From contig JAKSRW010000012.1 in NCBI GenBank assembly GCA_024403355.1, positions 16,797 through 80,796 of the forward strand: 64,000 bases of DNA, in the 5' to 3' direction. The notes beneath the pieces are model-generated. The model did no database searches and had not been told where the DNA came from. It worked only from the letters and a program-made list of their open reading frames with translations. Shown here in pieces: positions 3,641 to 64,000 of this stretch; position 1 is the stretch's first letter, and every line of letters begins with the position of its first letter. A program made the position numbers and the translations under genes. This DNA comes from Lachnospiraceae bacterium. GTDB lineage: Bacteria > Bacillota > Clostridia > Lachnospirales > Lachnospiraceae.

Positions 3641-3882
3641 ATTTACGAAATAAAAAAGCCCATGCAAACCAAACGGTTCACATGGGACGATAATTCAAAT
3701 CGTGGTGCCACCCAAATTCGTCATGCACTGCATGACCTCATAGCTCGATATAAAGGTCGAACCCTTCGACTCCTCGCCGACAGCTCCGAAAGTGGACGGT
3801 ATCAATTCCCCTACTGCCTCACACCTGCCGGCAGCTCTCTGAAAAGGTACTAATGAAACTTATTTTTCATCATTGCTGAACA
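3641..3882 (-). promoter_or_regulatory. T-box riboswitch leader of the serC-serA operon (probably Ser-specific)
   Basis: The minus strand contains AAUUUGGGUGGCACCACG, matching 15 of 18 positions of the T-box consensus AAUUAGGGUGGUACCGCG. It is followed by the terminator CCCAUG-N16-CAUGGG plus a U6 run. An AGAGAG / AGUA-containing stem I region lies upstream. Confidence 0.62.
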
Positions 3883-46250: not shown

Positions 46251-46529
46251 TAGTTATTATTCTAACACTTGTTAAAGATATTGGCAATCCGCTTCGCCGC
46301 CTGCTCATATAAAAGCTGCACCTCGCTCTTTACAAGCTGTCAATCATAATTACCTCAAAAGCCGTATCAGTATTAGAAATCTAATTTGCCGTTTTCGAGG
46401 AATAAATACGCTTATTTTTGCTGCAAACCGCTATACAATCGTCATTTTATAGGCTATAATCTAATCACAGGCAGCAAAGAAAAGCCTGTCACACACAGTG
46501 CGTTAAGCACGGAAGGAGAGGTTATTTTT

Positions 46530-54386: not shown

Positions 54387-56810
54387 TTAATAGTCTTTTT
54401 TTACTCTACAAAACGAACATTTTTTAATTATTAACCCCTTAAATGCAGCCCCACAATACTGGCAACGACCATTATTTCGATACTCTTTCATACGATCCAA
54501 TTTATTTTGTTGCTCTTGAAATCTTTTTTCTTCTTCTTTCTGTTGCTCTTGACGTATTTTTTCTTCTTCTTTCTGTTGCTCTTGACGTATTTTTTCTTCT
54601 TTTTTTCTTTGTTCTATAATCGACTTTTCCGACCAGGTAATTATCTCAGCTTTTTCAACACCCATATCTTTCTTTGCTATATTTTTTAACTTGTCAGGAA
54701 TAATAATTTGCGTCAAACTGCTACAGCCGCTAAATGCCCATCTGCCAATACTTGTTACACTATTCGGTATTTCGATTTGCGTCAAATTACTACACCTGCT
54801 AAATGCACTTTCTCCAATACTAGTTACACTATTCGGTATTTCAATTTGTGTCAGACTGCTGCAATCTGAAAATGCACTATCACCAATACTTATGACACTG
54901 TTGGGTATTTCAATTTGTGTCAAATTACTGCAGTTATAAAATGCACTATCACCAATACTTGTGACACTGTTGGGTATTTTTATTTGTGTCAAATTACTGC
55001 AGTTATAAAATGCACTATCACCAATACTTGTGACACTGTTGGGTATTGCAAATTCACTTATATCTCCATTAAAAGGAAAAAATGTATGTAGAATAGTTAA
55101 ATCATCGTTATATAATACTCCCCTATCTAACTTATAATATTTGTTTCCATCAGGAATTATAATCTGTGTCAAATTACTGCAGTTACTAAATGCACCTTCG
55201 CCAATAAATGTAACACTATTCGGTATTTCTATTTGTGTCAGACCGCTGCATTCTAAAAATGCCCAATCACCAATACTTGTAATACTGTTTGGTATTTCTA
55301 TTTGTCTCAAGCTACTGCATTCCGAAAATGCCCAACCACCAATACTTGTGACACTGTTTGGTATTTCTATTTGTGTCAGACTACTGCATTCTGTAAATGC
55401 ACAATCACCAATACTTGTGACACTGTTGGGTATTTTTATTTGTATCAAATTACTGCATTTATAAAATGCATATTCTCCAATACTTGTAACACTATTCGGA
55501 ATCTTGAATACAGATAACTCTGAGGCATCTGAATGAATATCAATTCTTTGCAATTTACCATTTACAATCCTAAAAATATCAGCAAAATCCCGTCGAAAAT
55601 TATTATTTATTTTAGTTTGAACATCTTTGTGCGCATATTTCATTACCTTACTGTAATTTTTAGTTTTAGTAATATCTTCCTTAAGTCCAAACTCAACATC
55701 AAAACTTTTAATTTTACATTCGACCATCAATTTAGCTACATACGCATCCCCACATTCCGGATTAATATCAAGAACACGCTCTGCATATTCCTCTGCAGAA
55801 TCCCATTCTTCATCCTCAATGAACATGAACGCACGTTTTAAAAGTGGTGCAACATTTGAGACAGACATATTATTCTGCTGTACATCATTTCCATTATCTG
55901 CTGTTTTACCCTCATCCTTTTTTATAACCTTTTTAATTCCCCGTAAAATATCATTAATAAATCCTATTTTCGACATATCCTGCGCCTGCAAATGCGCAAA
56001 TTCTTCCGGGAGTTCATATGCGTCCATATCCTTATAGCAAGGGATTAGCAGTTTACTGCGATCATTCTTCATAAGTTTCATAAAGCGTGACCATTCGTTC
56101 TTTACCCATACAGCACTAAAGTATTCCGGCTTTGAACCGATAGAAATCATTACCTTTGAACTATTGATTGCAGCGAATATATAGGGCTCATACTCCTGAC
56201 CAAGCTTGTCCTCCAAAGTAATCGCAGCATAGAAAACCTTAAAGCCTTCCTGTGTGAGCTGATGATATATGTCATTAGCTAAAACACTGTCAAATGTACG
56301 ATTACCATTTTCATCAGTTTCCTTGTAACTGATGAAAACATCATAAGGTTCTTCATTCTGGGAAATAGCAAGGATTCCCTTTTGTATCTCATCTATGGCC
56401 TTTGCTTCTGTCTCATAAATAGTTTTCTGTCCGATATCCGCATATTTTATCGCAAACCTATAATCCTCATCAGCAGTTATCGCATCAAAAGAAGACCTAT
56501 GGCAGGTTGGAACACGCTTGAGTGTTTTAGGGTCTTCAACATATTCAATACCATATTTACAGAGAATTATTCCCCAATATGCTTCTGCCTGTGTATTGTC
56601 AATTTCAATTATTTTGCTATAAATTTCTTCAGCTTTGTCAAACTCCGACTTCATACGAAGTGTATTTGCACGATTGAAAAGATTCCCGAGGATATCGTCT
56701 GTAATTTTCGGAATCGTCTGTTCTGTACCACAGTACTCACATGTCGAAATAGTTTCGTCTGAATTAATTTCTAATGTACCGCCACACATTTTACATTTTA
56801 ATATTGCCAT
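54387..56810 (-). CDS. Zn-ribbon-TPR-TIR-LRR(BspA-type) protein with a C-terminal coiled coil and zinc ribbon
   Basis: TIR signature YDVFISYKETDENG…KVMISIGSKPEYFSAVWVKNEWSRF. About twelve 23-aa IPNSVTSIGxxAFxxCSxLTQIE repeats. Tandem repeats EEKIRQEQQKE. Terminal CQYCG…CSFC. Confidence 0.8.
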   Translation of the reverse strand: MAILKCKMCGGTLEINSDETISTCEYCGTEQTIPKITDDILGNLFNRANTLRMKSEFDKAEEIYSKIIEIDNTQAEAYWGIILCKYGIEYVEDPKTLKRVPTCHRSSFDAITADEDYRFAIKYADIGQKTIYETEAKAIDEIQKGILAISQNEEPYDVFISYKETDENGNRTFDSVLANDIYHQLTQEGFKVFYAAITLEDKLGQEYEPYIFAAINSSKVMISIGSKPEYFSAVWVKNEWSRFMKLMKNDRSKLLIPCYKDMDAYELPEEFAHLQAQDMSKIGFINDILRGIKKVIKKDEGKTADNGNDVQQNNMSVSNVAPLLKRAFMFIEDEEWDSAEEYAERVLDINPECGDAYVAKLMVECKIKSFDVEFGLKEDITKTKNYSKVMKYAHKDVQTKINNNFRRDFADIFRIVNGKLQRIDIHSDASELSVFKIPNSVTSIGEYAFYKCSNLIQIKIPNSVTSIGDCAFTECSSLTQIEIPNSVTSIGGWAFSECSSLRQIEIPNSITSIGDWAFLECSGLTQIEIPNSVTFIGEGAFSNCSNLTQIIIPDGNKYYKLDRGVLYNDDLTILHTFFPFNGDISEFAIPNSVTSIGDSAFYNCSNLTQIKIPNSVTSIGDSAFYNCSNLTQIEIPNSVISIGDSAFSDCSSLTQIEIPNSVTSIGESAFSRCSNLTQIEIPNSVTSIGRWAFSGCSSLTQIIIPDKLKNIAKKDMGVEKAEIITWSEKSIIEQRKKEEKIRQEQQKEEEKIRQEQQKEEEKRFQEQQNKLDRMKEYRNNGRCQYCGAAFKGLIIKKCSFCRVKKDY

Positions 56811-57955: not shown

Positions 57956-58891
57956 CTACTGACCCCGTCCCCAAGAGTCCAAAAGGTAGTCGGCGAGCTT
58001 CGCGAATTCCTCGAGTCCGAGGGCCTCGCCGCGCACGGTTGCGCTGAGTCCAACATCTACGATGGCCTGCCCCACCAGCTCCTTAGGAAAGCTCAGCTCA
58101 GCTGAGTTCGAAATGCCGTTCTGAAGCGTTTTTCTGCGCTGGTTAAAGGCGGCACGGATAAGCTTAAACATCAGCTCCGGTGACTTGACCTGCACAGGCG
58201 GCTCAGGGCGCCTTGTAAGGCGGATAACGCATGAACCCACATTAGGACGCGGCATAAAGCAGTTAGGGGGCACATTGGCCGCAATATAGGCCTCAGAGTA
58301 GTACTGCACCGCCATAGACAGGGCACCGTAATCCTTCGTGCCGGGGCCCGCCTGCATACGCTCGGCCACCTCCTTCTGCACCATCACCGTGATACTGTCC
58401 ACCGGCAGCTGCTTCTCCAACAGTGCCATAACAATCGGAGTAGTTATATAGTAAGGCAGATTCGCCACGACCTTTATGGGCCGGCCGCCGTTCTTCTCCT
58501 CCACAATTTTTTTAATATCAACCTTCAGAATGTCCTCATTGATAATCTCGACATTATCGTAATCCTTCAGCGTGTCCTCGCGAAGAATCGGGATAAGTGC
58601 CTTGTCGATTTCCACCGCCACAACCTGACGTGCGTTTTCGCAAAGATACTGGGTAAGCGTACCTATTCCGGGGCCTATTTCCAGTACTAAATCATCCTTC
58701 GTAATACCCGCAGAATGAATTATTTTCTCCAGAACGTGCGTATCAATCAGGAAATTCTGGCCGAACTTCTTCTGAAATGTAAAATCATATTTATTTAAAA
58801 TTGCAATCGTATTTTTAGGATCTCCAAGTGTCGCCATTCGTATTTCCTTATCTTCTGTATAAATCTTTTTTTGCCGCTTCCAAGTCTTCAT
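57956..58891 (-). CDS. rsmA: 16S rRNA (adenine1518/1519-N6)-dimethyltransferase
   Basis: KsgA motifs QNFLID…EIGPGIGTLT. The start may be the internal Met 17 codons in (MATLGD…). Confidence 0.85.
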   Translation of the reverse strand: MKTWKRQKKIYTEDKEIRMATLGDPKNTIAILNKYDFTFQKKFGQNFLIDTHVLEKIIHSAGITKDDLVLEIGPGIGTLTQYLCENARQVVAVEIDKALIPILREDTLKDYDNVEIINEDILKVDIKKIVEEKNGGRPIKVVANLPYYITTPIVMALLEKQLPVDSITVMVQKEVAERMQAGPGTKDYGALSMAVQYYSEAYIAANVPPNCFMPRPNVGSCVIRLTRRPEPPVQVKSPELMFKLIRAAFNQRRKTLQNGISNSAELSFPKELVGQAIVDVGLSATVRGEALGLEEFAKLADYLLDSWGRGQ

Positions 58892-58999
58892 GCGGGCTTA
58901 TCTGTCTTCAAAAAGCCCAGCATAATTCCCCGCATCTGCCATCACTCTGCGAAGGCTTGTCTGCCTTCTAAGCCCATCATAACTCCCCCGCATCTGCCA

Positions 59000-60031
59000 T
59001 CACTCTGCAAGCCCGAAAAATCTGCAGGCATTCGCATAGCTTGCCTCGTAGACCTCAGCCACGGAAATGCCCTTTATTTCGGCTATCTTCTCTGCCACAT
59101 ATGTCAGATAACCCGAATTGTTTCTTGAACCCCTGAAGGGCTCAGGTGCGAGATAAGGACAGTCTGTCTCGAGTAAAATCTTATCGAGAGGCAGCTCAGC
59201 CACAGTCTCCTTAAGCTTCTTCGAATTCTTAAAAGTAATCACGCCCCCTATGCCGAAATACATACCCATTTTCAGGTACTCCCTCGCCTGCTCGGGGCTG
59301 TAGGAATAGCAGTGCATAACCGCACGGAATTCCCTATTCTCACGCTGCGCCTGCTGATATATTTCACGAACCATTTCCAGCGTATCCTCAGCCGCATCAC
59401 GACTGTGGATAATAACAGGCTTATTCAGCTCAAAAGCCAGCTCCCACTGCTTTTTGAAGGCCTCCTGCTGGACCTCCTTCGGCCAGACATTCCAGTGATA
59501 ATCAAGTCCGATTTCACCTATCGCCAGGCATTTATCATCCTGTGCGAGAGCAGCCAAAAGACTGAAATTATTAGCACAGACCGCAGGAGTCAGACGCGCA
59601 AATTTGGGATTTACGGCAGAATCCTCAGGCCGGCCTGCATCGGACCCTGCGTTTTGCTCACAGTAGCAGACCTCTCCCGCCTCATCGGGATGCACGCCTA
59701 CTGCCGCATATACAAAATCATAACGATGCGCCAATGCCACGCTCTCAAGCGAGCCATGCACGCTTGCACCGACATTGACTATGCGGGCCACCCTCGCCTT
59801 AGGACTGCTTTCGGGCATAATTCCATCGCTGTCCTCTGCGTCTGCTGCCGCTTTGGGCCGTCCTTCAGCCGCTGCCTGACAGTCAGCCGGTGTAACAAAA
59901 TTCTTCGTGCCGACCGAAGCAAATCCCGCAAACAGCTCATCCCTGTCCGCATCAAACTGCTCATCATCATAATGAGCATGTGAATCAAATATTTTAAAAT
60001 CTTCCATGTCTGCGACGCCTTCCCCTGACAA
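59000..60031 (-). CDS. tatD: TatD-family metal-dependent hydrolase
   Basis: N-terminal FDSHAHYD metal-binding motif. The start is probably MEDFKIFDSHAH. Confidence 0.78.
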   Translation of the reverse strand: MSGEGVADMEDFKIFDSHAHYDDEQFDADRDELFAGFASVGTKNFVTPADCQAAAEGRPKAAADAEDSDGIMPESSPKARVARIVNVGASVHGSLESVALAHRYDFVYAAVGVHPDEAGEVCYCEQNAGSDAGRPEDSAVNPKFARLTPAVCANNFSLLAALAQDDKCLAIGEIGLDYHWNVWPKEVQQEAFKKQWELAFELNKPVIIHSRDAAEDTLEMVREIYQQAQRENREFRAVMHCYSYSPEQAREYLKMGMYFGIGGVITFKNSKKLKETVAELPLDKILLETDCPYLAPEPFRGSRNNSGYLTYVAEKIAEIKGISVAEVYEASYANACRFFGLAE

Positions 60032-61517
60032 TTAACAAACCGCCGATTACAAAAATCAGCACACCGATTCCTATACCTATGGCGATGGCATTACGCTCCT
60101 CCGCCTCACTCTTTTCCTTCGCAAGCTCCTTATTTCCGGGCTTGCCGAGCATATCCGGGGTCACATCCTTAAATGCCACCTCGACCGGAATCATATAGCC
60201 GGGCCACTCCTTCTTAAAGACCTTCTCCGTAATCGGATAATCATTATTATAATAAATAATATCCGTCGAGCCTATCACGCGGTCACCGTAGGTATAAGCC
60301 ACATTTCCGATGATATTCTCGCCGTGCTCAATCTCCCTGCTCTGGATATTAACCTCGCGCTTTGCATTGCTTACATCAAAGCCCTCGGGAATCATCAGCG
60401 TCCCCGCACCCGAAATCTCCAGAATCTGCGGCGTCTGACGCTCAAACTTTTCGATATCTCCAAACGGGGACTGGAATTCAAAATGCACGTCCTTTTTGCC
60501 CAAATCAGACATCTTATAGACCTGATAATTATTAAAGCAGTACTCAAGGAGCTTACGCGAATCAGAATAAACCGCCTCCCAGGTAGGCGCATGCATAACA
60601 ACGCTTATCAAAGTCTTGCCATCCTTACGCGCATAAGTCACCAGCGCATAGCCTGCCTGCGTGGTCGCACCGGTCTTGCCGCCGATACAGTAATCATAAG
60701 GCTGCGTACCGTTCAAAAACCAGTGGTGATTCGTCAGAATCTTCTCCGGATTCTTATTCGTGGCAGGCATATCAAAGAATGCCGTGCCTGTAATTTTCAT
60801 AAAATAATCGTTTTTATAGGCCGCCCTCGCAATCAGCGAAAGGTCATAAGGACAGGTATAATGGTCATCATCATGAAGACCGTGCGAATTCGCAAAATGT
60901 GAACGCTCGCAGCCTAACTGCTGGGCCTTCCTGTTCATCAGCTTAATAAAGCCCGCAATAGAGCCGCCCGCATGCTCACCTACCGCATAGGTCGCCTCAT
61001 TTGCCGACTCCAGCATAATTCCGTAGAGAGCCTGCTCCATGGTCAGCTGCTCACCCTCCACCAGACCCATTCGGCTACTGGTCTTCGAAACATAATTATC
61101 AGCCGCATAGGACACGGTCACTATCTCGTCCGGTGTACTGTTCTCGATTGCCACCAGAGTGGTCAGAACCTTAGTCGTGCTCGCCGGATAAAACTGCTGA
61201 TAAATATTCTTCTCATAGAGAATATTGCCGGTCTCTGCATCCACCACTATCGCGCCATCGCCCTCTATCGCCGGCCCCGCAGGCCAGCCGTCGTCCGTAG
61301 CTGCAGAATTCCCCGCATTCTCTGCGGCCAAAGCCTGAACAGTGTTCGAAAAAAACTTATTTACAGAATCCGCATTTCGGACATTTTGCGAAATATCAGT
61401 AGGAATCAGCACAAAAATCATAGCAAAAAGAACTACAAAAACAAGAGGCACACGGAAGCTCTTCCTTCCACGTCCCATTATCCTGCCCTCTGTATTTTTA
61501 AAGCTTCGTTTCTGCAT
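59994..61517 (-). CDS. D-alanyl-D-alanine carboxypeptidase (peptidase S11, PBP5-like) with a C-terminal membrane anchor
   Basis: Active-site SxxK (ASTTK), SxN and KTG motifs. C-terminal TM helix. Confidence 0.78.
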   Translation of the reverse strand: MQKRSFKNTEGRIMGRGRKSFRVPLVFVVLFAMIFVLIPTDISQNVRNADSVNKFFSNTVQALAAENAGNSAATDDGWPAGPAIEGDGAIVVDAETGNILYEKNIYQQFYPASTTKVLTTLVAIENSTPDEIVTVSYAADNYVSKTSSRMGLVEGEQLTMEQALYGIMLESANEATYAVGEHAGGSIAGFIKLMNRKAQQLGCERSHFANSHGLHDDDHYTCPYDLSLIARAAYKNDYFMKITGTAFFDMPATNKNPEKILTNHHWFLNGTQPYDYCIGGKTGATTQAGYALVTYARKDGKTLISVVMHAPTWEAVYSDSRKLLEYCFNNYQVYKMSDLGKKDVHFEFQSPFGDIEKFERQTPQILEISGAGTLMIPEGFDVSNAKREVNIQSREIEHGENIIGNVAYTYGDRVIGSTDIIYYNNDYPITEKVFKKEWPGYMIPVEVAFKDVTPDMLGKPGNKELAKEKSEAEERNAIAIGIGIGVLIFVIGGLLIVRGRRRRHGRF

Positions 61518-61596
61518 CTGATTTCACCACCCGTAACCGCTAATCCGGTCAAACTCATTTCTATCATATTATCACAAAAATATGAAAAAAGCGAGA

Positions 61597-61700
61597 AAAT
61601 TCAAAATTTATCCTATTGCATTTTGAATATTTTAATGTATAATAACTATCAACAGGAGCCCCCACACCTCTCACTGAAGTGTCAAATGGGGGCACATTTT
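61597..61700 (+). promoter_or_regulatory. consensus promoter followed immediately by a GC hairpin and a U-tract (a ~50-nt transcript or attenuator?)
   Basis: TTGCAT-16-TATAAT, then GGAGCCCCCAC…GTGGGGGC, then ACATTTTTT. Confidence 0.35.
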
Positions 61701-61757
61701 TTACAGAAAGGAGCAATATAATTATCAAGAAACCCCAAACATTTGACCAGTTAGTCA

Positions 61758-61884
61758 GTCAAACTCGTGACCGCTTCGCTTGTCACTCGTTATAAAATCG
61801 CTGCTACCGCAGCTTACGAGGTACGGGGCTTGAACCCCGCACCTCGCGAAAGCTTCACCCACCGCCTAAAGGCAGTGGGTTATC
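61758..61884 (-). ncRNA. structured RNA-like repeat element, copy 1 (T-loop-capped 12-bp helix plus two further hairpins)
   Basis: On the minus strand: CCCACUGCC-UUUA-GGCGGUGGG, then CGAGGUGCGGGG-UUCAAGC-CCCGUACCUCG, then CGUGAC/GUCACG. Near-identical to 63919-64000. Confidence 0.4.
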
Positions 61885-62098
61885 TTTCTATTTTATATAC
61901 TAAAAGAAAAAAATATACTCATTCCCAACGAAACCACTAATTAATCTTGTAAATACTTATAAGCCCTATATTTCTATGAATCATCTTGATTTTCCGTATC
62001 GTTGGAAATCGATGATAAAACAATAGTTAAAAAAACAGCATAGTCAACAATGACTATGCCGTTTTGCTTTTAATCAATAATTCACAGCAATTATTCAA

Positions 62099-62476
62099 TT
62101 AAGAATTAAGCTTGATAAGTCTGAGCTGACCAACGATAGGAAGGTCCTTAACTCTGCCCTGTGCACTGAATACAATACCCATAATAGCGATTGCTAAAAG
62201 GCCTAAATCCAGAAGATAGAAAATGATACCGAATACTAAACCTACTACAGGGATGAAGCCAAAGATTACTGAAAGAACTGAAATGATAGCCTCAAAGATA
62301 AAAAGCATAATACCCTGCTCAGCGTTTGACTGTGCAAATTTTGACTGCTTGCATGCAAACATGGGAATGAACACAAGGGGTCCGATGTATGCGAGAATAC
62401 CCATAGCCTTGTTAGCCTGAATATCAGCAGGATCAAACTCGTTTGTGCGATCTACGATTGAAAATAAATTGCCCAT
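62099..62476 (-). CDS. small polytopic membrane protein
   Basis: 125 aa, three to four TM helices. Confidence 0.55.
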   Translation of the reverse strand: MGNLFSIVDRTNEFDPADIQANKAMGILAYIGPLVFIPMFACKQSKFAQSNAEQGIMLFIFEAIISVLSVIFGFIPVVGLVFGIIFYLLDLGLLAIAIMGIVFSAQGRVKDLPIVGQLRLIKLNS

Positions 62477-62599
62477 AATGTCCTCCTATAATAAAATTTA
62501 TGAATGCGGTTCCCTGGCAGGTCCGCTCATTTGACTAAATTATATCGCAAAATAAACCTAATGTAAAGTGCAGAAATAGGGAAATAAACCGTGTTTTTC

Positions 62600-63259
62600 T
62601 CAAAACTCCTCCAAAAGCATTTCAACTTCACAATTTAAGACCTTCGCCATTCTGACCAGATAATCCACATTGGCCTTATTAATATCCTTCGCTCTCTGCT
62701 CGTACTGCTGGATGGTTCTCAGAGGAACCCCGCTCCTTTCCGCCAGCTGACGCTGAGAAATCCCTGCGTAGCAGCGAAAGCGCTTCAGTCTGCTCTCAGT
62801 CTGTGCCCGCCTGCGGATTTCATCGACACCGTCAACAAACTGCGTAATATCCATCTCATGATACTTATCATACATATTCCAGTAAGTATTGATATCCACC
62901 CCATCAGTAATCTTAGAAAAAGGAATTCCCTTAACCCACTGATAATATGCCAGCACCCATCCCAGCCAATAGGATTGGCTTCTGTCAAGCGTGTAATACT
63001 CCGGCTTACACAGGTCCTGATAGCCATTCGCTTCCAATATATCAAAAGCCAGTTCACGTCCCGAGCGTCCCTCAATTACAGAAGAGCTTCCCACCTCAAT
63101 TTTTTTTGAAACTGACGAATTTAAAAACATATGATAAAAATGCTTGAGCTCAACACCGTAAAAATTCATGCCGGTATCAAACATCCAGCCCATCACTCTT
63201 TGTGCACGCGGCAGCAAATCATAATCGTAAGCGTTCATCCTCCGGTCCGACCTCCTCAT
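62600..63259 (-). CDS. protein with an N-terminal uncharacterised domain and a C-terminal XRE-type HTH
   Basis: …YAGISQRQLAERSGVPLRTIQQYEQRAKDI… HTH. Overlaps the upstream gene. Confidence 0.55.
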   Translation of the reverse strand: MRRSDRRMNAYDYDLLPRAQRVMGWMFDTGMNFYGVELKHFYHMFLNSSVSKKIEVGSSSVIEGRSGRELAFDILEANGYQDLCKPEYYTLDRSQSYWLGWVLAYYQWVKGIPFSKITDGVDINTYWNMYDKYHEMDITQFVDGVDEIRRRAQTESRLKRFRCYAGISQRQLAERSGVPLRTIQQYEQRAKDINKANVDYLVRMAKVLNCEVEMLLEEF

Positions 63260-63893
63260 TCATTAAAGACATCATGTACAGATTTCCTTTTGTCCATGAT
63301 TCTTTTCTCATTTCTCTATAGCGGCTTCTCGCTGATGTATCCCGCTCCTTCTTTGCATTGTACCAGACAGCCGACTCTGCTTCCTCTGCTCCGATAAACT
63401 CGATTTTTGAAAAAGCTCGTTCGCTCTTCAGCACAACCTGTTCACCCAGACATCCCAATTTCATTGCCTTTGATAACGTCTGCAACGAAATACTATTATT
63501 GATAAAATCCGAAGCATATGAAAAGTAACTGTCATCCGCTCTGTATCCTATTATAATATCAGCCTCCATATAAGGCAGTTGAAAATTAGTTTTCAGATAT
63601 TCAACCGCTTCCCGCGCGAAATCGCTTTGGACATCAAAAGTCCGATTTTCCAGCAATACCGTAATCCAATGAAGAATCGAATACCTTGAATCATTTAGCC
63701 GAAGTATGTTCATATTATCTAAATCAATGCTATATTCGTTACAATAACCATTCCTGTTTTGATCGACGGCCCATTCAAAGGCAAGCGGCTTATGTTCAGT
63801 ACAATAGAATCCTCTTCCATAATCATTATGCAATTTGCCTTTGCCCAAAATCGGCCTCTCAATAATAAATTCCGAGCCATGATATAAAGTCAT
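63219..63893 (-). CDS. hypothetical protein (DUF3990-like, N-terminal LYHGS motif)
   Basis: Sequence MTLYHGSEF…GFYCT… The family assignment is from memory only. Confidence 0.45.
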   Translation of the reverse strand: MTLYHGSEFIIERPILGKGKLHNDYGRGFYCTEHKPLAFEWAVDQNRNGYCNEYSIDLDNMNILRLNDSRYSILHWITVLLENRTFDVQSDFAREAVEYLKTNFQLPYMEADIIIGYRADDSYFSYASDFINNSISLQTLSKAMKLGCLGEQVVLKSERAFSKIEFIGAEEAESAVWYNAKKERDTSARSRYREMRKESWTKGNLYMMSLMNEEVGPEDERLRL

Positions 63894-63918
63894 AGAAATT
63901 CCTCATAATAGTTTTGTT

Positions 63919-64000
63919 GTCAAACTCGCAAACGCTTCGCTTTTTGCTCGTTATAAAATCGCTGCTACCGCAGCTTACGAGGTACGGGGCTTGAACCCCG
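63919..64000 (-). ncRNA. structured RNA-like repeat element, copy 2; truncated by the window end, directly 5' of the 63219-63893 gene
   Basis: Identical T-loop helix and 3' segment. The distal hairpin carries compensatory changes (GCAAA/UUUGC instead of GUGAC/GUCAC). Confidence 0.4.

Follow-up and report, generated by a model that had tools for sequence, protein, structure and literature searches.

A repeated, strongly structured RNA-like element of Lachnospiraceae, probably a gene-less IS200/IS605 derivative

Introduction

The closest described systems are the palindrome-associated transposable elements (PATEs), gene-less derivatives of IS200/IS605 transposons (Dyall-Smith 2011; Altae-Tran 2021; Meers 2023, PMC10055086). 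Some PATEs encode omega-RNAs (PMC10055086). The published TAM values are TTTAT, which is the TAM of ISGst2 (PMC10055086), and TTCAT; the published TEM is TTCAC (Meers et al., PMC10055086). In the omega-RNA of ISDra2, a 116-nt scaffold with four stems, nucleotides -5 to -3 pair with -103 to -105 (PMC10097598).

The window, the whole stretch of DNA that was analysed, comprises 64,000 nt from a Lachnospiraceae bacterium. An earlier note on this DNA had described a repeated RNA-like element flanking a mini-island and had offered three identities, a shared cis-regulatory leader, a duplicated tRNA-like att site or a mobile module. The mobile module came nearest, while the att site and the leader were not supported. 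With moderate confidence, the element is a non-autonomous, PATE-like derivative of IS200/IS605 with an omega-RNA-like scaffold, served in trans by TnpA and TnpB.

Results

Copies of the element in the window

A repeat search found 82 nt at 93% identity between 61758-61839 and 63919-64000, the second stretch being cut by the window end, as had been reported. A 23-nt core has two exact occurrences in the window compared with 0 expected. The fold energy of the minus strand is -75.1 kcal/mol (z = -8.2) vs. -59.5 for the plus strand, indicating that the minus strand, the functional strand of the structured element, is the correct reading of the helices. The two copies are where the earlier note placed them, but the proper length is 137 nt on the minus strand and the helices are more numerous; CCCACUGCC/GGCGGUGGG, the 12-bp helix and the distal hairpin were present as described, while P4 and P1 had been missed. 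The features are as follows.

61758-61894, minus strand: copy 1, the complete element, 137 nt, subtype B, AAAAUAGAAAG...GAGUUUGAC; CM score 141.6 bits, E = 1.8e-27
61895-61899, minus strand: TATAT immediately 5' of copy 1, a TAM-like target pentanucleotide, the last 3 nt of which double as outer P1 pairs
61858-61879, minus strand: P2 apical hairpin, CCCACUGCC-UUUA-GGCGGUGGG, with a U.G wobble; matches IS605-type tnpA/tnpB end hairpins, left and right
61817-61846, minus strand: P3, 12-bp helix with a 6-nt loop, UUCAAG, at 61829-61834; covariation
61796-61813, minus strand: P4 hairpin, GCUGC-GGUA-GCAGC; compensatory changes in 4/5 pairs
61791-61798, minus strand: 3' strand of P1, the closing helix, AUUUUAUA, after P4; compensatory changes in 7/8 P1 pairs
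61767-61786, minus strand: P5 distal hairpin, GUGAC-AA-GCGAAGC-G-GUCAC; compensatory differences between copies and covariation in the family
61758-61762, minus strand: UUGAC 3' terminus, a TEM-like boundary motif invariant in the family; unrelated flank directly beyond
63919-64000, minus strand: copy 2, 3' 82 nt (3' half of P3, P4, P5 and tail), 5' end cut; CM 65.7 bits
46269-46338, minus strand: decayed third copy, P3/P4 remnants and a subtype A 3' module (...UAUGAGCAGGCGGCGAAGCGGAUUGCCAAUAUCUUUAAC); CM 35.4 bits, E about 8e-5
61548-61556, minus strand: isolated GAGUUUGAC 9-mer in the 5' UTR of the carboxypeptidase gene; sequence match

Other loci are designated by L numbers. Identical proteins were sought for three proteins of the window with no match, and homologues then led to the locus. 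The remainder of copy 2 lies beyond the window, and the full copy was found at the same locus in another sample (L136:2184-2327). The ATG of the DUF3990 gene (63893) is 25 nt downstream of copy 2, and the TTGATA-17-TATAAT promoter in L136 stops 3 nt short of the TATAT that precedes the full copy. A distance of 240 nt separates copy 1 from the carboxypeptidase gene, and this gene has a promoter of its own. The isolated 9-mer may be a relic of an old copy; about 0.24 such matches are expected per strand by chance, so that it is weak alone. A decayed copy of the element is found in L138 at the orthologous spot.

Helices and covariation

The element is a strongly structured RNA-like module under selection for structure. 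In an alignment of 22 family members, 96.1% of the cells are paired compared with 35-44% in slid controls, and compensatory changes occur in 28/43 pairs distributed over five helices. None of 500 shuffles matched the observed pairing and covariation values. The alignment contains 85 G.U cells vs. 10 A.C cells, a further indication that the structured RNA strand is the minus strand. The compensatory differences in P5 noted earlier (GUGAC/GUCAC in copy 1, GCAAA/UUUGC in copy 2) were verified, and covariation extends to every helix across the 22 members. Another form of P5 in the family is GCGGAU-UGCGAAU-AUCCGC. Subtypes A, B and C have a common architecture and differ in the sequences of the helices.

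The 12-bp helix had been likened to a tRNA minihelix capped by a T-loop. Like an acceptor/T-arm minihelix or the 3' end of tmRNA, P3 is a continuous 12-bp helix with a loop that starts with UUCAA. However, the loop has 6 nt, so there is no 7-nt T-loop in register, and the element lacks a 3' NCCA and the D and anticodon arms. In subtype C the stem is different and the loop is UACAAU or UGCAAG, such that CAA(G) alone is conserved. ARAGORN called 0 tRNA or tmRNA genes in 58000-64000, in agreement with the earlier statement that no complete tRNA is present. A scan of Rfam, curated transposon RNAs included, gave no match over the element at the gathering threshold or at E <= 10. The likeness to tRNA was thus not borne out. 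Weak Rfam matches elsewhere in the window (abiF, Vimentin3 and mir-6) are noise.

In every subtype, the P3 loop sequence UCAAG can pair with CUUGA or UUUGA at -6 to -2. This complementarity of the loop CAAG to the element's own 3' terminus predicts a pseudoknot; since the terminus is invariant, the prediction draws on conservation alone.

Presence and absence of the element at related loci

Copies 1 and 2 are direct repeats 2161 bp apart that bracket three genes, an arrangement that could reflect tRNA- or tmRNA-like attL and attR sites duplicated by the integration of an island of ~2 kb. The locus comparisons refute this interpretation, the probability of which is negligible. The gene for a membrane protein that lies between the copies has a promoter of its own and is native, since it occupies the same position in L138 (an 83% relative without the DUF3990/HTH pair) and in L144 (a 73% relative with no element at all). 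The near-identical strains L136 and L137 carry copy 2 but lack copy 1, which is absent by way of a ~490-nt replacement. Moreover, the copies differ by compensatory changes when att duplicates should be identical, most family copies are solitary, and there is neither a called tRNA or tmRNA nor an integrase. The presence of copy 1 varies between strains, and the interpretation of the 61885-63918 segment as a mini-island fails.

Termini were evident when L005 was compared with its 94% orthologue L147. The breakpoints in homology lie precisely at the end of TTTAT and at the end of TTGAC, and L147 has 54 unrelated nt where L005 has the element. The element is polymorphic between strains and between species. 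The all-against-all comparison of the flanks of element loci gave no clean empty site.

An integron attC site was considered because the copies are about 2 kb apart and an RBS directly follows. On inspection there was no R''/R' core (RYYYAAC...GTTRRRY), the structure is not a single bulged hairpin and the copies are mostly solitary. On inspection there was also no evident likeness to CRISPR repeats, dif/Xer sites or group II intron domains.

Distribution of the family

The element belongs to a dispersed family in which the structural covariation is held and which reaches six copies per genome; carriers include Clostridium sp. CAG:411 and the MAG CM_BacCAG1281.22. The family occupies 15 genome loci in several Lachnospiraceae, one MAG having six copies on six contigs, and further copies occur in gut and rumen metagenomes and in viral/phage contigs. 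Distinct full copies number at least 20; their contexts differ and they have no coding capacity. On inspection of the flanks, neither inverted termini nor duplications were seen. Similarity stops sharply at the 5' boundary, beyond which the sequences are unrelated, and neither a promoter nor a terminator is conserved along with the element. The copies of one genome are almost identical, indicating recent spread, while the orthologous copies of L001 and L011, in two species, indicate that some copies are old and stable. Truncated and decayed copies are numerous, and truncated halves persist beside genes. The 3' module is highly conserved and is also found alone or in tandem; a literature search for its sequence gave no match. 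Contig or scaffold ends fall inside the element in L002, L006, L014, L015 and L146.

The possibility was considered that the element is an independent, multi-copy class of phage-borne structured ncRNA that acts in trans, for example as a protein-binding RNA or a ribozyme, and has no link to transposition. The very strong covariation, the architecture that stays constant across three sequence-divergent subtypes, the conservation of the 3' module, the occurrence in phage contigs and the lack of an Rfam match are all consistent with such a class. However, the sharp 5' boundary and the lack of a conserved promoter or terminator are not; the abundant truncated and decayed copies resemble the debris of mobile elements, and the near-identity of copies within a genome indicates recent spread. 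This explanation is decidedly unlikely.

Position relative to neighboring genes

Many copies, in sense orientation, either take up the space from a stop codon to the following RBS or lie 15-45 nt ahead of a start codon. In L005 and L013 the element directly follows stop codons. Most copies are co-oriented with the neighboring genes, as would be expected in Firmicutes of insertion into the lagging-strand template, the mode of insertion of IS608 and ISDra2; the copies in L002 and L003 are antisense. The position relative to promoters also varies, being within the 5' UTR for copy 2 and upstream of the promoter in L146. An outward-facing promoter with the terminal TTGAC as its -35 box was rejected on inspection, as the flanks have no -10 box at 17 nt and the start codons are too near.

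A riboswitch-like or protein-responsive leader common to the DUF3990/HTH operon and the carboxypeptidase gene would account for the fact that the DUF3990 gene has copy 2 as its 5' UTR and that the 3' module is also found upstream of a second DUF3990 gene (L146). The genes downstream of the family are, however, functionally unrelated (urea-carboxylase-like, LURP, HAD, LysR, transglutaminase, LytTR, phosphoesterase, OTCase, RumA and MYG1). Copy 1 is distant from the self-promoted carboxypeptidase gene and is absent in strains in which this gene is identical, and the antisense copies and the module upstream of the L146 promoter are likewise at odds with a leader. The shared leader proposed earlier is accordingly very improbable.

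A possible, though rather unlikely, explanation is that the host has retained the element as an intergenic RNA module of the REP/BOX/ERIC type, which acts in cis on its mRNAs and was spread by recombination or other mobilization. Such a module could protect 5' or 3' ends, direct processing, couple translation or terminate antisense transcription in one direction, and its likeness to the ends of IS200/IS605 would then be partial or inherited from an ancestor and would no longer serve a function. The placement of sense copies in the gaps before an RBS or shortly before start codons, the position of copy 2 between a consensus promoter and the DUF3990 RBS, the resemblance of antisense P2 with its T-run to an intrinsic terminator, the truncated halves kept beside genes, the conservation of the L001 and L011 copies across species and the lack of a transposase in the element-bearing loci all point in this direction. 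The element also resembles the pneumococcal BOX/RUP, the enterobacterial ERIC and REP/BIME and the Correia elements of Neisseria in being short, multi-copy, intergenic and co-transcribed with a stable fold. Those repeats, however, end in terminal inverted repeats or RAYT-recognized REP palindromes and have no IS605 hairpin, TAM/TEM grammar or comparably covarying five-helix junction. The explanation leaves unaccounted for the exact match to the IS605 hairpin, wobble included, as well as the TAM/TEM grammar and the covariation of guide and TAM; five covarying helices and a conserved 3' module exceed the usual needs of an mRNA stabilizer, and the placement relative to promoters is inconsistent.

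Resemblance to the ends of IS605-type transposons

The apex of P2, CCCACYRCC-TTTA-GGYRGTGGG, matches, T.G wobble included, the left- and right-end hairpins of IS605-type elements that carry tnpA and tnpB. Of the metagenome loci matched by a pattern derived from this hairpin, at least 120 in number, the majority are IS ends. In about 20 loci, 119 nt separate the stop codon of TnpB from the right-end hairpin downstream. At the left end the same hairpin follows a TTCAT boundary. The TnpB and Y1 TnpA of hairpin-bearing elements were confirmed by Pfam. The same IS family has mini-elements with a single hairpin and no tnp gene in at least eight contexts. In subtype C the apex of P2 is different and the 5' flank resembles TTTAA.

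All subtype A and B copies have T(T/A)TAT, that is TTTAT or TATAT, on the 5' side and end in TTGAC, giving a terminus pattern in which TTNAT precedes the element and TTNAC closes it. IS605-type right ends terminate in TAGTTGAC or TAGTTCAC. The triplet 5' of the hairpin foot pairs with the TAM, as AAA/TTT in subtype A and as ATA/TAT in copies 1 and 2 of the window and in L006; in L010 and L012 the pairing is only partial. At the IS ends, pairing of CAAG with TTGAC was found in 17/17. CAAG is a possible TEM guide, although its location is ambiguous. P5, the subterminal hairpin at the 3' end, bears no relation to the CCCAC hairpin, and there is no matching TnpA-type hairpin at the right end. Canonical synapsis by TnpA needs a second copy of the hairpin at the 3' end. 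HEARO, the IscB omega-RNA, matched an IS right end with E = 0.3, a sub-threshold echo of the shared terminus that was not used for membership.

A tblastn search with the TnpA and TnpB of L024 found neither tnpA nor tnpB in the window or in ~250 kb of element-bearing loci, and within those loci no tnpB adjoins any copy of the element. No autonomous parent with the ends of the element was found in the element-bearing loci, the plasmid collection or the phage records. The plasmid collection had no match to the element, and the phage records had only unannotated truncated halves of it.

Discussion

The element shares with PATEs its non-coding nature, its size of about 140 nt, its multiple copies and the lack of terminal inverted repeats or visible target duplication. 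As in PATEs, the subterminal hairpin matches that of co-occurring IS605-type elements, the 5' flank has TTNAT, the 3' end has TTNAC, and the structured RNA-like body stops at the right boundary. A triplet resembling a guide lies at the hairpin foot and is complementary to the TAM in subtype A, in window copies 1 and 2 and in L006. Unlike PATEs, it has one TnpA-type hairpin, with an unrelated hairpin in the 3' subterminal position, and no cognate TnpA or TnpB in the ~250 kb of element-bearing loci. Furthermore, its body is a compact five-helix fold of which the left-end hairpin is one arm, and its 3' module also occurs alone or in tandem. The single-hairpin mini-elements (TTCAT, 33 nt, hairpin, TAGTTGAC) are likewise gene-less, have the same hairpin in many contexts and follow the same order of TAM, spacer, hairpin and TEM, but are only about 71 nt long with no extra helices. 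The element differs from them in having ~100 nt of covarying structure between the hairpin and the TEM, another spacer and another TAM.

The likeness to the TnpB omega-RNA or reRNA (ISDra2; Karvelis 2021; Nakagawa 2023, PMC10097598) lies in a strand-specific, four- or five-stemmed scaffold, about 116-140 nt long, with its end exactly at the right boundary, here the predicted one. In addition, the nucleotides leading up to this boundary would, by prediction, form pairs with an internal loop some 75-100 nt further upstream, and a hairpin immediately precedes that 3' strand. The element differs in having no similarity in sequence or in Rfam and no overlap with tnpB, and its pseudoknot is only a prediction.

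As a PATE-like derivative, the element would be organized on its top strand, the minus strand of the window, as a TAM-like flank (TTTAT or TATAT), about 15 nt, the TnpA-type subterminal hairpin at the P2 apex, a module of ~100 nt formed by P3, P4 and P5 and closed by P1, and the TEM-like terminus TTGAC. A Y1 transposase (TnpA) encoded elsewhere would excise the single-stranded top strand and insert it 3' of a TAM. The element would be transcribed by read-through or from a promoter, as for copy 2, and its body would fold into the omega-RNA-like scaffold. The last nucleotides of the scaffold may form the pseudoknot with the P3 loop, as in the TnpB omega-RNA, with the adjacent flank as the guide. 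TnpB acting in trans could re-cut the vacated donor joints, whereupon recombination would restore the element. The expected parent IS would have a left end in which AAAAG directly follows TTTAT, with the CCCAC hairpin, and/or a right end that stops at ...GCGGAUUGCGAAUAUCC(GC)UUGAC. For the element itself, transcription, present mobility, the pseudoknot and a need for TnpA and TnpB are features that we infer. Against this interpretation stand the lack of a transposase partner in the loci covered, of a clean empty site and of a second end hairpin, the partial fit of guide and TAM in L010 and L012, the divergent P2 apex and flank of subtype C, the lack of an Rfam match and the apparent age of the L001 and L011 copies.

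The conserved structure stops at TTGAC, and the flank beyond is variable. The 16-20 nt that directly follow TTGAC, where a guide would lie, coincide in many copies with the RBS and the start region of the following gene. It is improbable that the family is a guide-RNA-like scaffold that stands alone after escaping from its nuclease gene, or a new phage-carried class of RNA with a borrowed hairpin. An escaped scaffold could allow TnpB or a nuclease-dead, TnpB-like repressor to sense or regulate the next genes in trans. A new class could be, for example, a ribozyme or protein sponge of Lachnospiraceae phages, the IS200/IS605 hairpin being merely borrowed.

The sites of the element should not be annotated as tRNA-like att sites or riboswitches, and the element accounts for contig breaks in Lachnospiraceae assemblies. 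A well-supported structured family, with 28 covarying pairs and no Rfam entry, is added to a clade that has none curated. If the PATE-like interpretation is correct, an element of ~140 nt would fuse a transposase-recognition hairpin and an omega-RNA-like scaffold in one fold and would be abundant in a major bacterial family of the human gut and rumen and in its phages. It would then provide a test case for the action of TnpA and TnpB in trans on gene-less passengers, for the minimal size of an omega-RNA-bearing transposon and for the reshaping of 5' UTRs and operon spacers by such elements.

Copies of the element in the window and elsewhere

The repetition claimed in the earlier note was borne out: 61758-61839 and 63919-64000 have 82 nt in common at 93% identity, the second copy being cut by the window end, and a 23-nt core is present at exactly two sites in the window vs. 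0 expected. The copies are:

61894-61758, minus strand: copy 1, 137 nt, with TATAT directly 5'
L136:2184-2327: copy 2 in its complete form, from the same locus in another sample
46269-46338, minus strand: third copy, decayed

Elsewhere in the window, a perfect 23-nt direct repeat (CCCCGCATCTGCCATCACTCTGC) lies at 58928-59008(+), 58 nt apart.

The further copies that the earlier note had proposed to look for were found. A pattern made from the 12-bp hairpin matched 15 loci in Lachnospiraceae genomes; six copies lie on six contigs of one MAG and three in Clostridium sp. CAG:411, and metagenomes, viral contigs and phage contigs yielded additional copies. Several contigs and scaffolds are broken within the element, as expected of a repeat. 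All copies share sharp ends (^ marks a boundary), 5' T(T/A)TAT^AAAAG/U... and 3' ...UUGAC^. The tail of subtype A reads ...GCGGAUUGCGAAUAUCC(GC)UUGAC and that of subtype B, the type in the window, ...GAGUUUGAC, while subtype C has the same architecture with entirely different P1, P2 and P3 sequences. The 3' module was also found alone, in tandem, or joined to other 5' parts.

Rearranged copies include a deletion fusing two internal GAGCAAG direct repeats (L007:2039-2104(-)), a tandem pair containing an internal duplication (L009:5878-6171(-)) and two tandem 3' modules straight before an RBS and ATG (L008:784-984(-)). In L098, an 8.8 kb CAG:411-like metagenome contig, five copies or fragments share a strand and follow one another at intervals of about 2 kb, a spacing similar to that seen for the two window copies; the genes separating them are unrelated and of housekeeping type (RumA-like methyltransferase, HD-domain protein, CDF transporter, WYL regulator). 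The 9-mer that ends subtype B, GAGUUUGAC, has two further same-strand sites in the window (about 0.24 expected per strand), one within an 807-aa repeat-protein ORF (56637-56645(-)) and one in the carboxypeptidase 5' UTR (61548-61556(-)), where a relative, L138, has a decayed copy.

Consensus fold and covariation

In the consensus fold, P1 is the closing helix, P2 a long hairpin with the apex CCCACUGCC-UUUA-GGCGGUGGG, P3 a 12-14-bp hairpin with the loop UUCAAG and P4 a short hairpin; outside the junction come hairpin P5, capped by GCGAAGC, and the tail. All of the helices described earlier exist, but they read properly on the minus strand only. The fold energy is -75.1 kcal/mol (z = -8.2) on that strand and -59.5 on the plus strand, and two imperfect pairs of the described helices are G.U on the minus strand and A.C on the plus strand.

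Covariation extends to the further copies. In an alignment of 22 members, which was fitted to the fold model and is thus biased in favour of structure, pairing holds in 96.1% of cells, and compensatory changes occur at 28 of 43 pairs. None of 500 shuffles reached any observed pairing measure, and slid partners pair at 35-44%. When 13 sequences were analysed independently with MAFFT/RNAalifold, 10 compensatory pairs emerged. Furthermore, G.U cells far outnumber A.C cells (85 vs. 10) and standard pairs make up 96.1% on the element strand vs. 87.4% on the opposite strand, indicating that the structure is under selection in one strand, as RNA or single-stranded DNA.

In L136, P5 of copy 2 is mispaired (2290-2320): its 5' arm, GUGAC, resembles that of copy 1, and its 3' arm, UUUGC, that of copy 2. 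Gene conversion involving both copies, or a chimeric assembly, may account for this.

The Rfam scan that had been proposed matched no family over the element at the gathering threshold, and relaxing the cut-off to E ≤ 10 gave none either. ARAGORN called no tRNA or tmRNA in window 58000-64000, in agreement with the earlier statement that no complete tRNA is present. The fold is unusually elaborate, strongly covarying and absent from Rfam; that it represents an independent class of trans-acting RNA is considered improbable. A T-box leader unrelated to the element was detected above the gathering threshold at 3680-3882(-) (100.6 bits, E = 5e-21).

Boundaries and genomic context

The predicted termini were compared with the orthologous loci L005 and L147, whose MYG1 proteins are 94% identical. 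Homology runs to ...GTCTGTC(T/G)TTTAT^ and resumes from ^TTA(G)AAAAAGGAG. Both predicted termini therefore coincide with the breakpoints, and TTTAT is part of the flank. Between them are the 144-nt element in L005 and 54 unrelated nucleotides in L147, so this is not a clean empty site. Copy 1 is missing from L136 and L137, strains whose carboxypeptidase is 100% identical to that of the window and in which the spacer of about 490 nt at window ~62083-61597, holding a terminator, copy 1 and an abiF-like hairpin, is replaced by a 40-nt terminator segment (L136:4148-4200 and L137). More distant relatives have decayed fragments only (L138, 83%) or an 83-nt spacer and no element (L144, 73%). Some copies are old, because L001 and L011 are orthologous copies retained in two species.

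The abiF-like hairpin, which lies in the segment missing from L136 and L137, is a GC-rich hairpin at 61658-61694(+), in the stretch that separates copy 1 from the carboxypeptidase promoter; its match to abiF RNA is below threshold (20.5 bits vs. 37, E = 2.3).

The possibility raised earlier, that the copies are tRNA-like att sites flanking an island, was refuted. The membrane-protein gene between them, with its own promoter (TTTACA-17-TATAAT), is native to the locus: L138 and L144, both without the DUF3990/HTH pair, have it in the corresponding position. This gene, together with the L136 and L137 strains that have copy 2 and not copy 1, shows that the copies are not att sites of an island. The earlier interpretation was partly supported, its observation being confirmed and its att reading not.

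Copy 2 is flanked by the DUF3990 RBS and, on its other side, by a near-consensus promoter (TTGATA-17-TATAAT, 11/12 matches) whose end is 3 nt short of TATAT, so that its transcription as a 5' UTR is very probable. A shared cis-regulatory leader of the riboswitch type is unlikely, since unrelated genes lie downstream, placement is variable and two copies run antisense to neighbouring genes. Many copies immediately precede an RBS, which could reflect selection for a function in cis and counts against a transposon reading; a REP/BOX-like intergenic RNA module is possible, at a rather low probability.

A second DUF3990/HTH pair (67% identical; L146:1-112) also has the element's 3' module upstream, followed by the promoter TTGACT-17-TATAAT; the contig breaks in the module. 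The association may recur, or it may have arisen by chance, the element being so abundant.

Probable relation to IS200/IS605 elements

A second search employed the P2-apex pattern, so that matches were not selected on P3. It retrieved at least 120 metagenome loci, most of them not the window element but the ends of a repeat that is far more common, ...CAAG-CCCACYRCC-TTTA-GGYRGTGGG-TAGTTGAC^ or ...TAGTTCAC^. In about 20 loci an ORF of about 379 aa stops exactly 119 nt upstream of the hairpin; Pfam identified it as TnpB (OrfB_IS605 and a Cas12f1-like TNB domain) and a divergent ORF upstream as a Y1 IS200-like transposase. The left end of these IS605-type elements is TTCAT^-33 nt-same hairpin, and the T.G wobble of the hairpin is at the identical position in P2. 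At these ends, the three bases before the terminal A(C/T)^ pair with bases -4 to -2 relative to the hairpin foot: TTGAC accompanies CAAG (17/17), TTCAC mostly GAAG, and TTCAT GAAA. This is the guide/cleavage-site pairing described for IS608 and ISGst elements. One IS605-type right end (L024:5220-5371(-)) has a weak match on the opposite strand to HEARO, the IscB omega-RNA (19.5 bits, E = 0.3), passing through the shared terminus GUCAACUA-CCCC...GGGG-CUUG.

The target motif (TAM) is TTTAT for ISGst2 TnpB2 and TTCAT for ISGst5 IscB, and the right-boundary motif (TEM) is TTCAC; the two differ at positions 3 and 5 only, with flexible spacing (Meers et al., PMC10055086). The element, with a 5' flank of TTTAT or TATAT and a 3' end of TTGAC, would fit this grammar. 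Moreover, bases by the P2 foot complement the 5' flank, AAA/TTT in subtype A and ATA/TAT in window copies 1 and 2 and L006; L010 and L012 show only partial complementarity, and subtype C deviates in the P2 apex and 5' flank.

Against a transposon reading stand the deviations of subtype C, the 3' modules that occur apart from the full element, and the results of the partner search. No tnpA or tnpB was found in any element-bearing locus examined, nor was an autonomous parent found in searches that included a plasmid collection and phage records. Nor does P5, the subterminal hairpin on the 3' side, repeat the CCCAC hairpin, an objection that is mitigated by single-hairpin mini-elements of the same IS family without tnp genes, TTCAT^-33 nt-hairpin-TAGTTGAC^, which exist in at least 8 contexts. 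The element has the defining IS200/IS605 ends and grammar in part, without a second end hairpin or known partner.

The P3 loop had been likened to a tRNA T-loop. However, it has 6 nt, and in subtype C the stem is unrelated and the loop is UACAAU, UGCAAG or ACAAG, leaving CAA(G) as the sole part kept across subtypes. The loop is at -77 to -72 from the element end, and its CAAG is complementary to the terminal CUUGA or UUUGA of the element itself, at -6 to -2. The IS605-type elements retrieved here have an analogous long-range complement, internal GUCAAC with terminal GUUGAC. The ISDra2 TnpB complex contains an omega-RNA scaffold of 116 nt with four stems and a pseudoknot that pairs nucleotides -5 to -3 with -103 to -105 (PMC10097598). 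The window element would have the same layout, with a predicted loop-terminus contact that is backed by conservation rather than covariation because the terminus is invariant. Palindrome-associated gene-less derivatives (PATEs) "often encode omega-RNAs" (Meers et al., PMC10055086), and the element is, on balance, probably a PATE-like, non-autonomous IS200/IS605 derivative carrying an omega-RNA-like scaffold.
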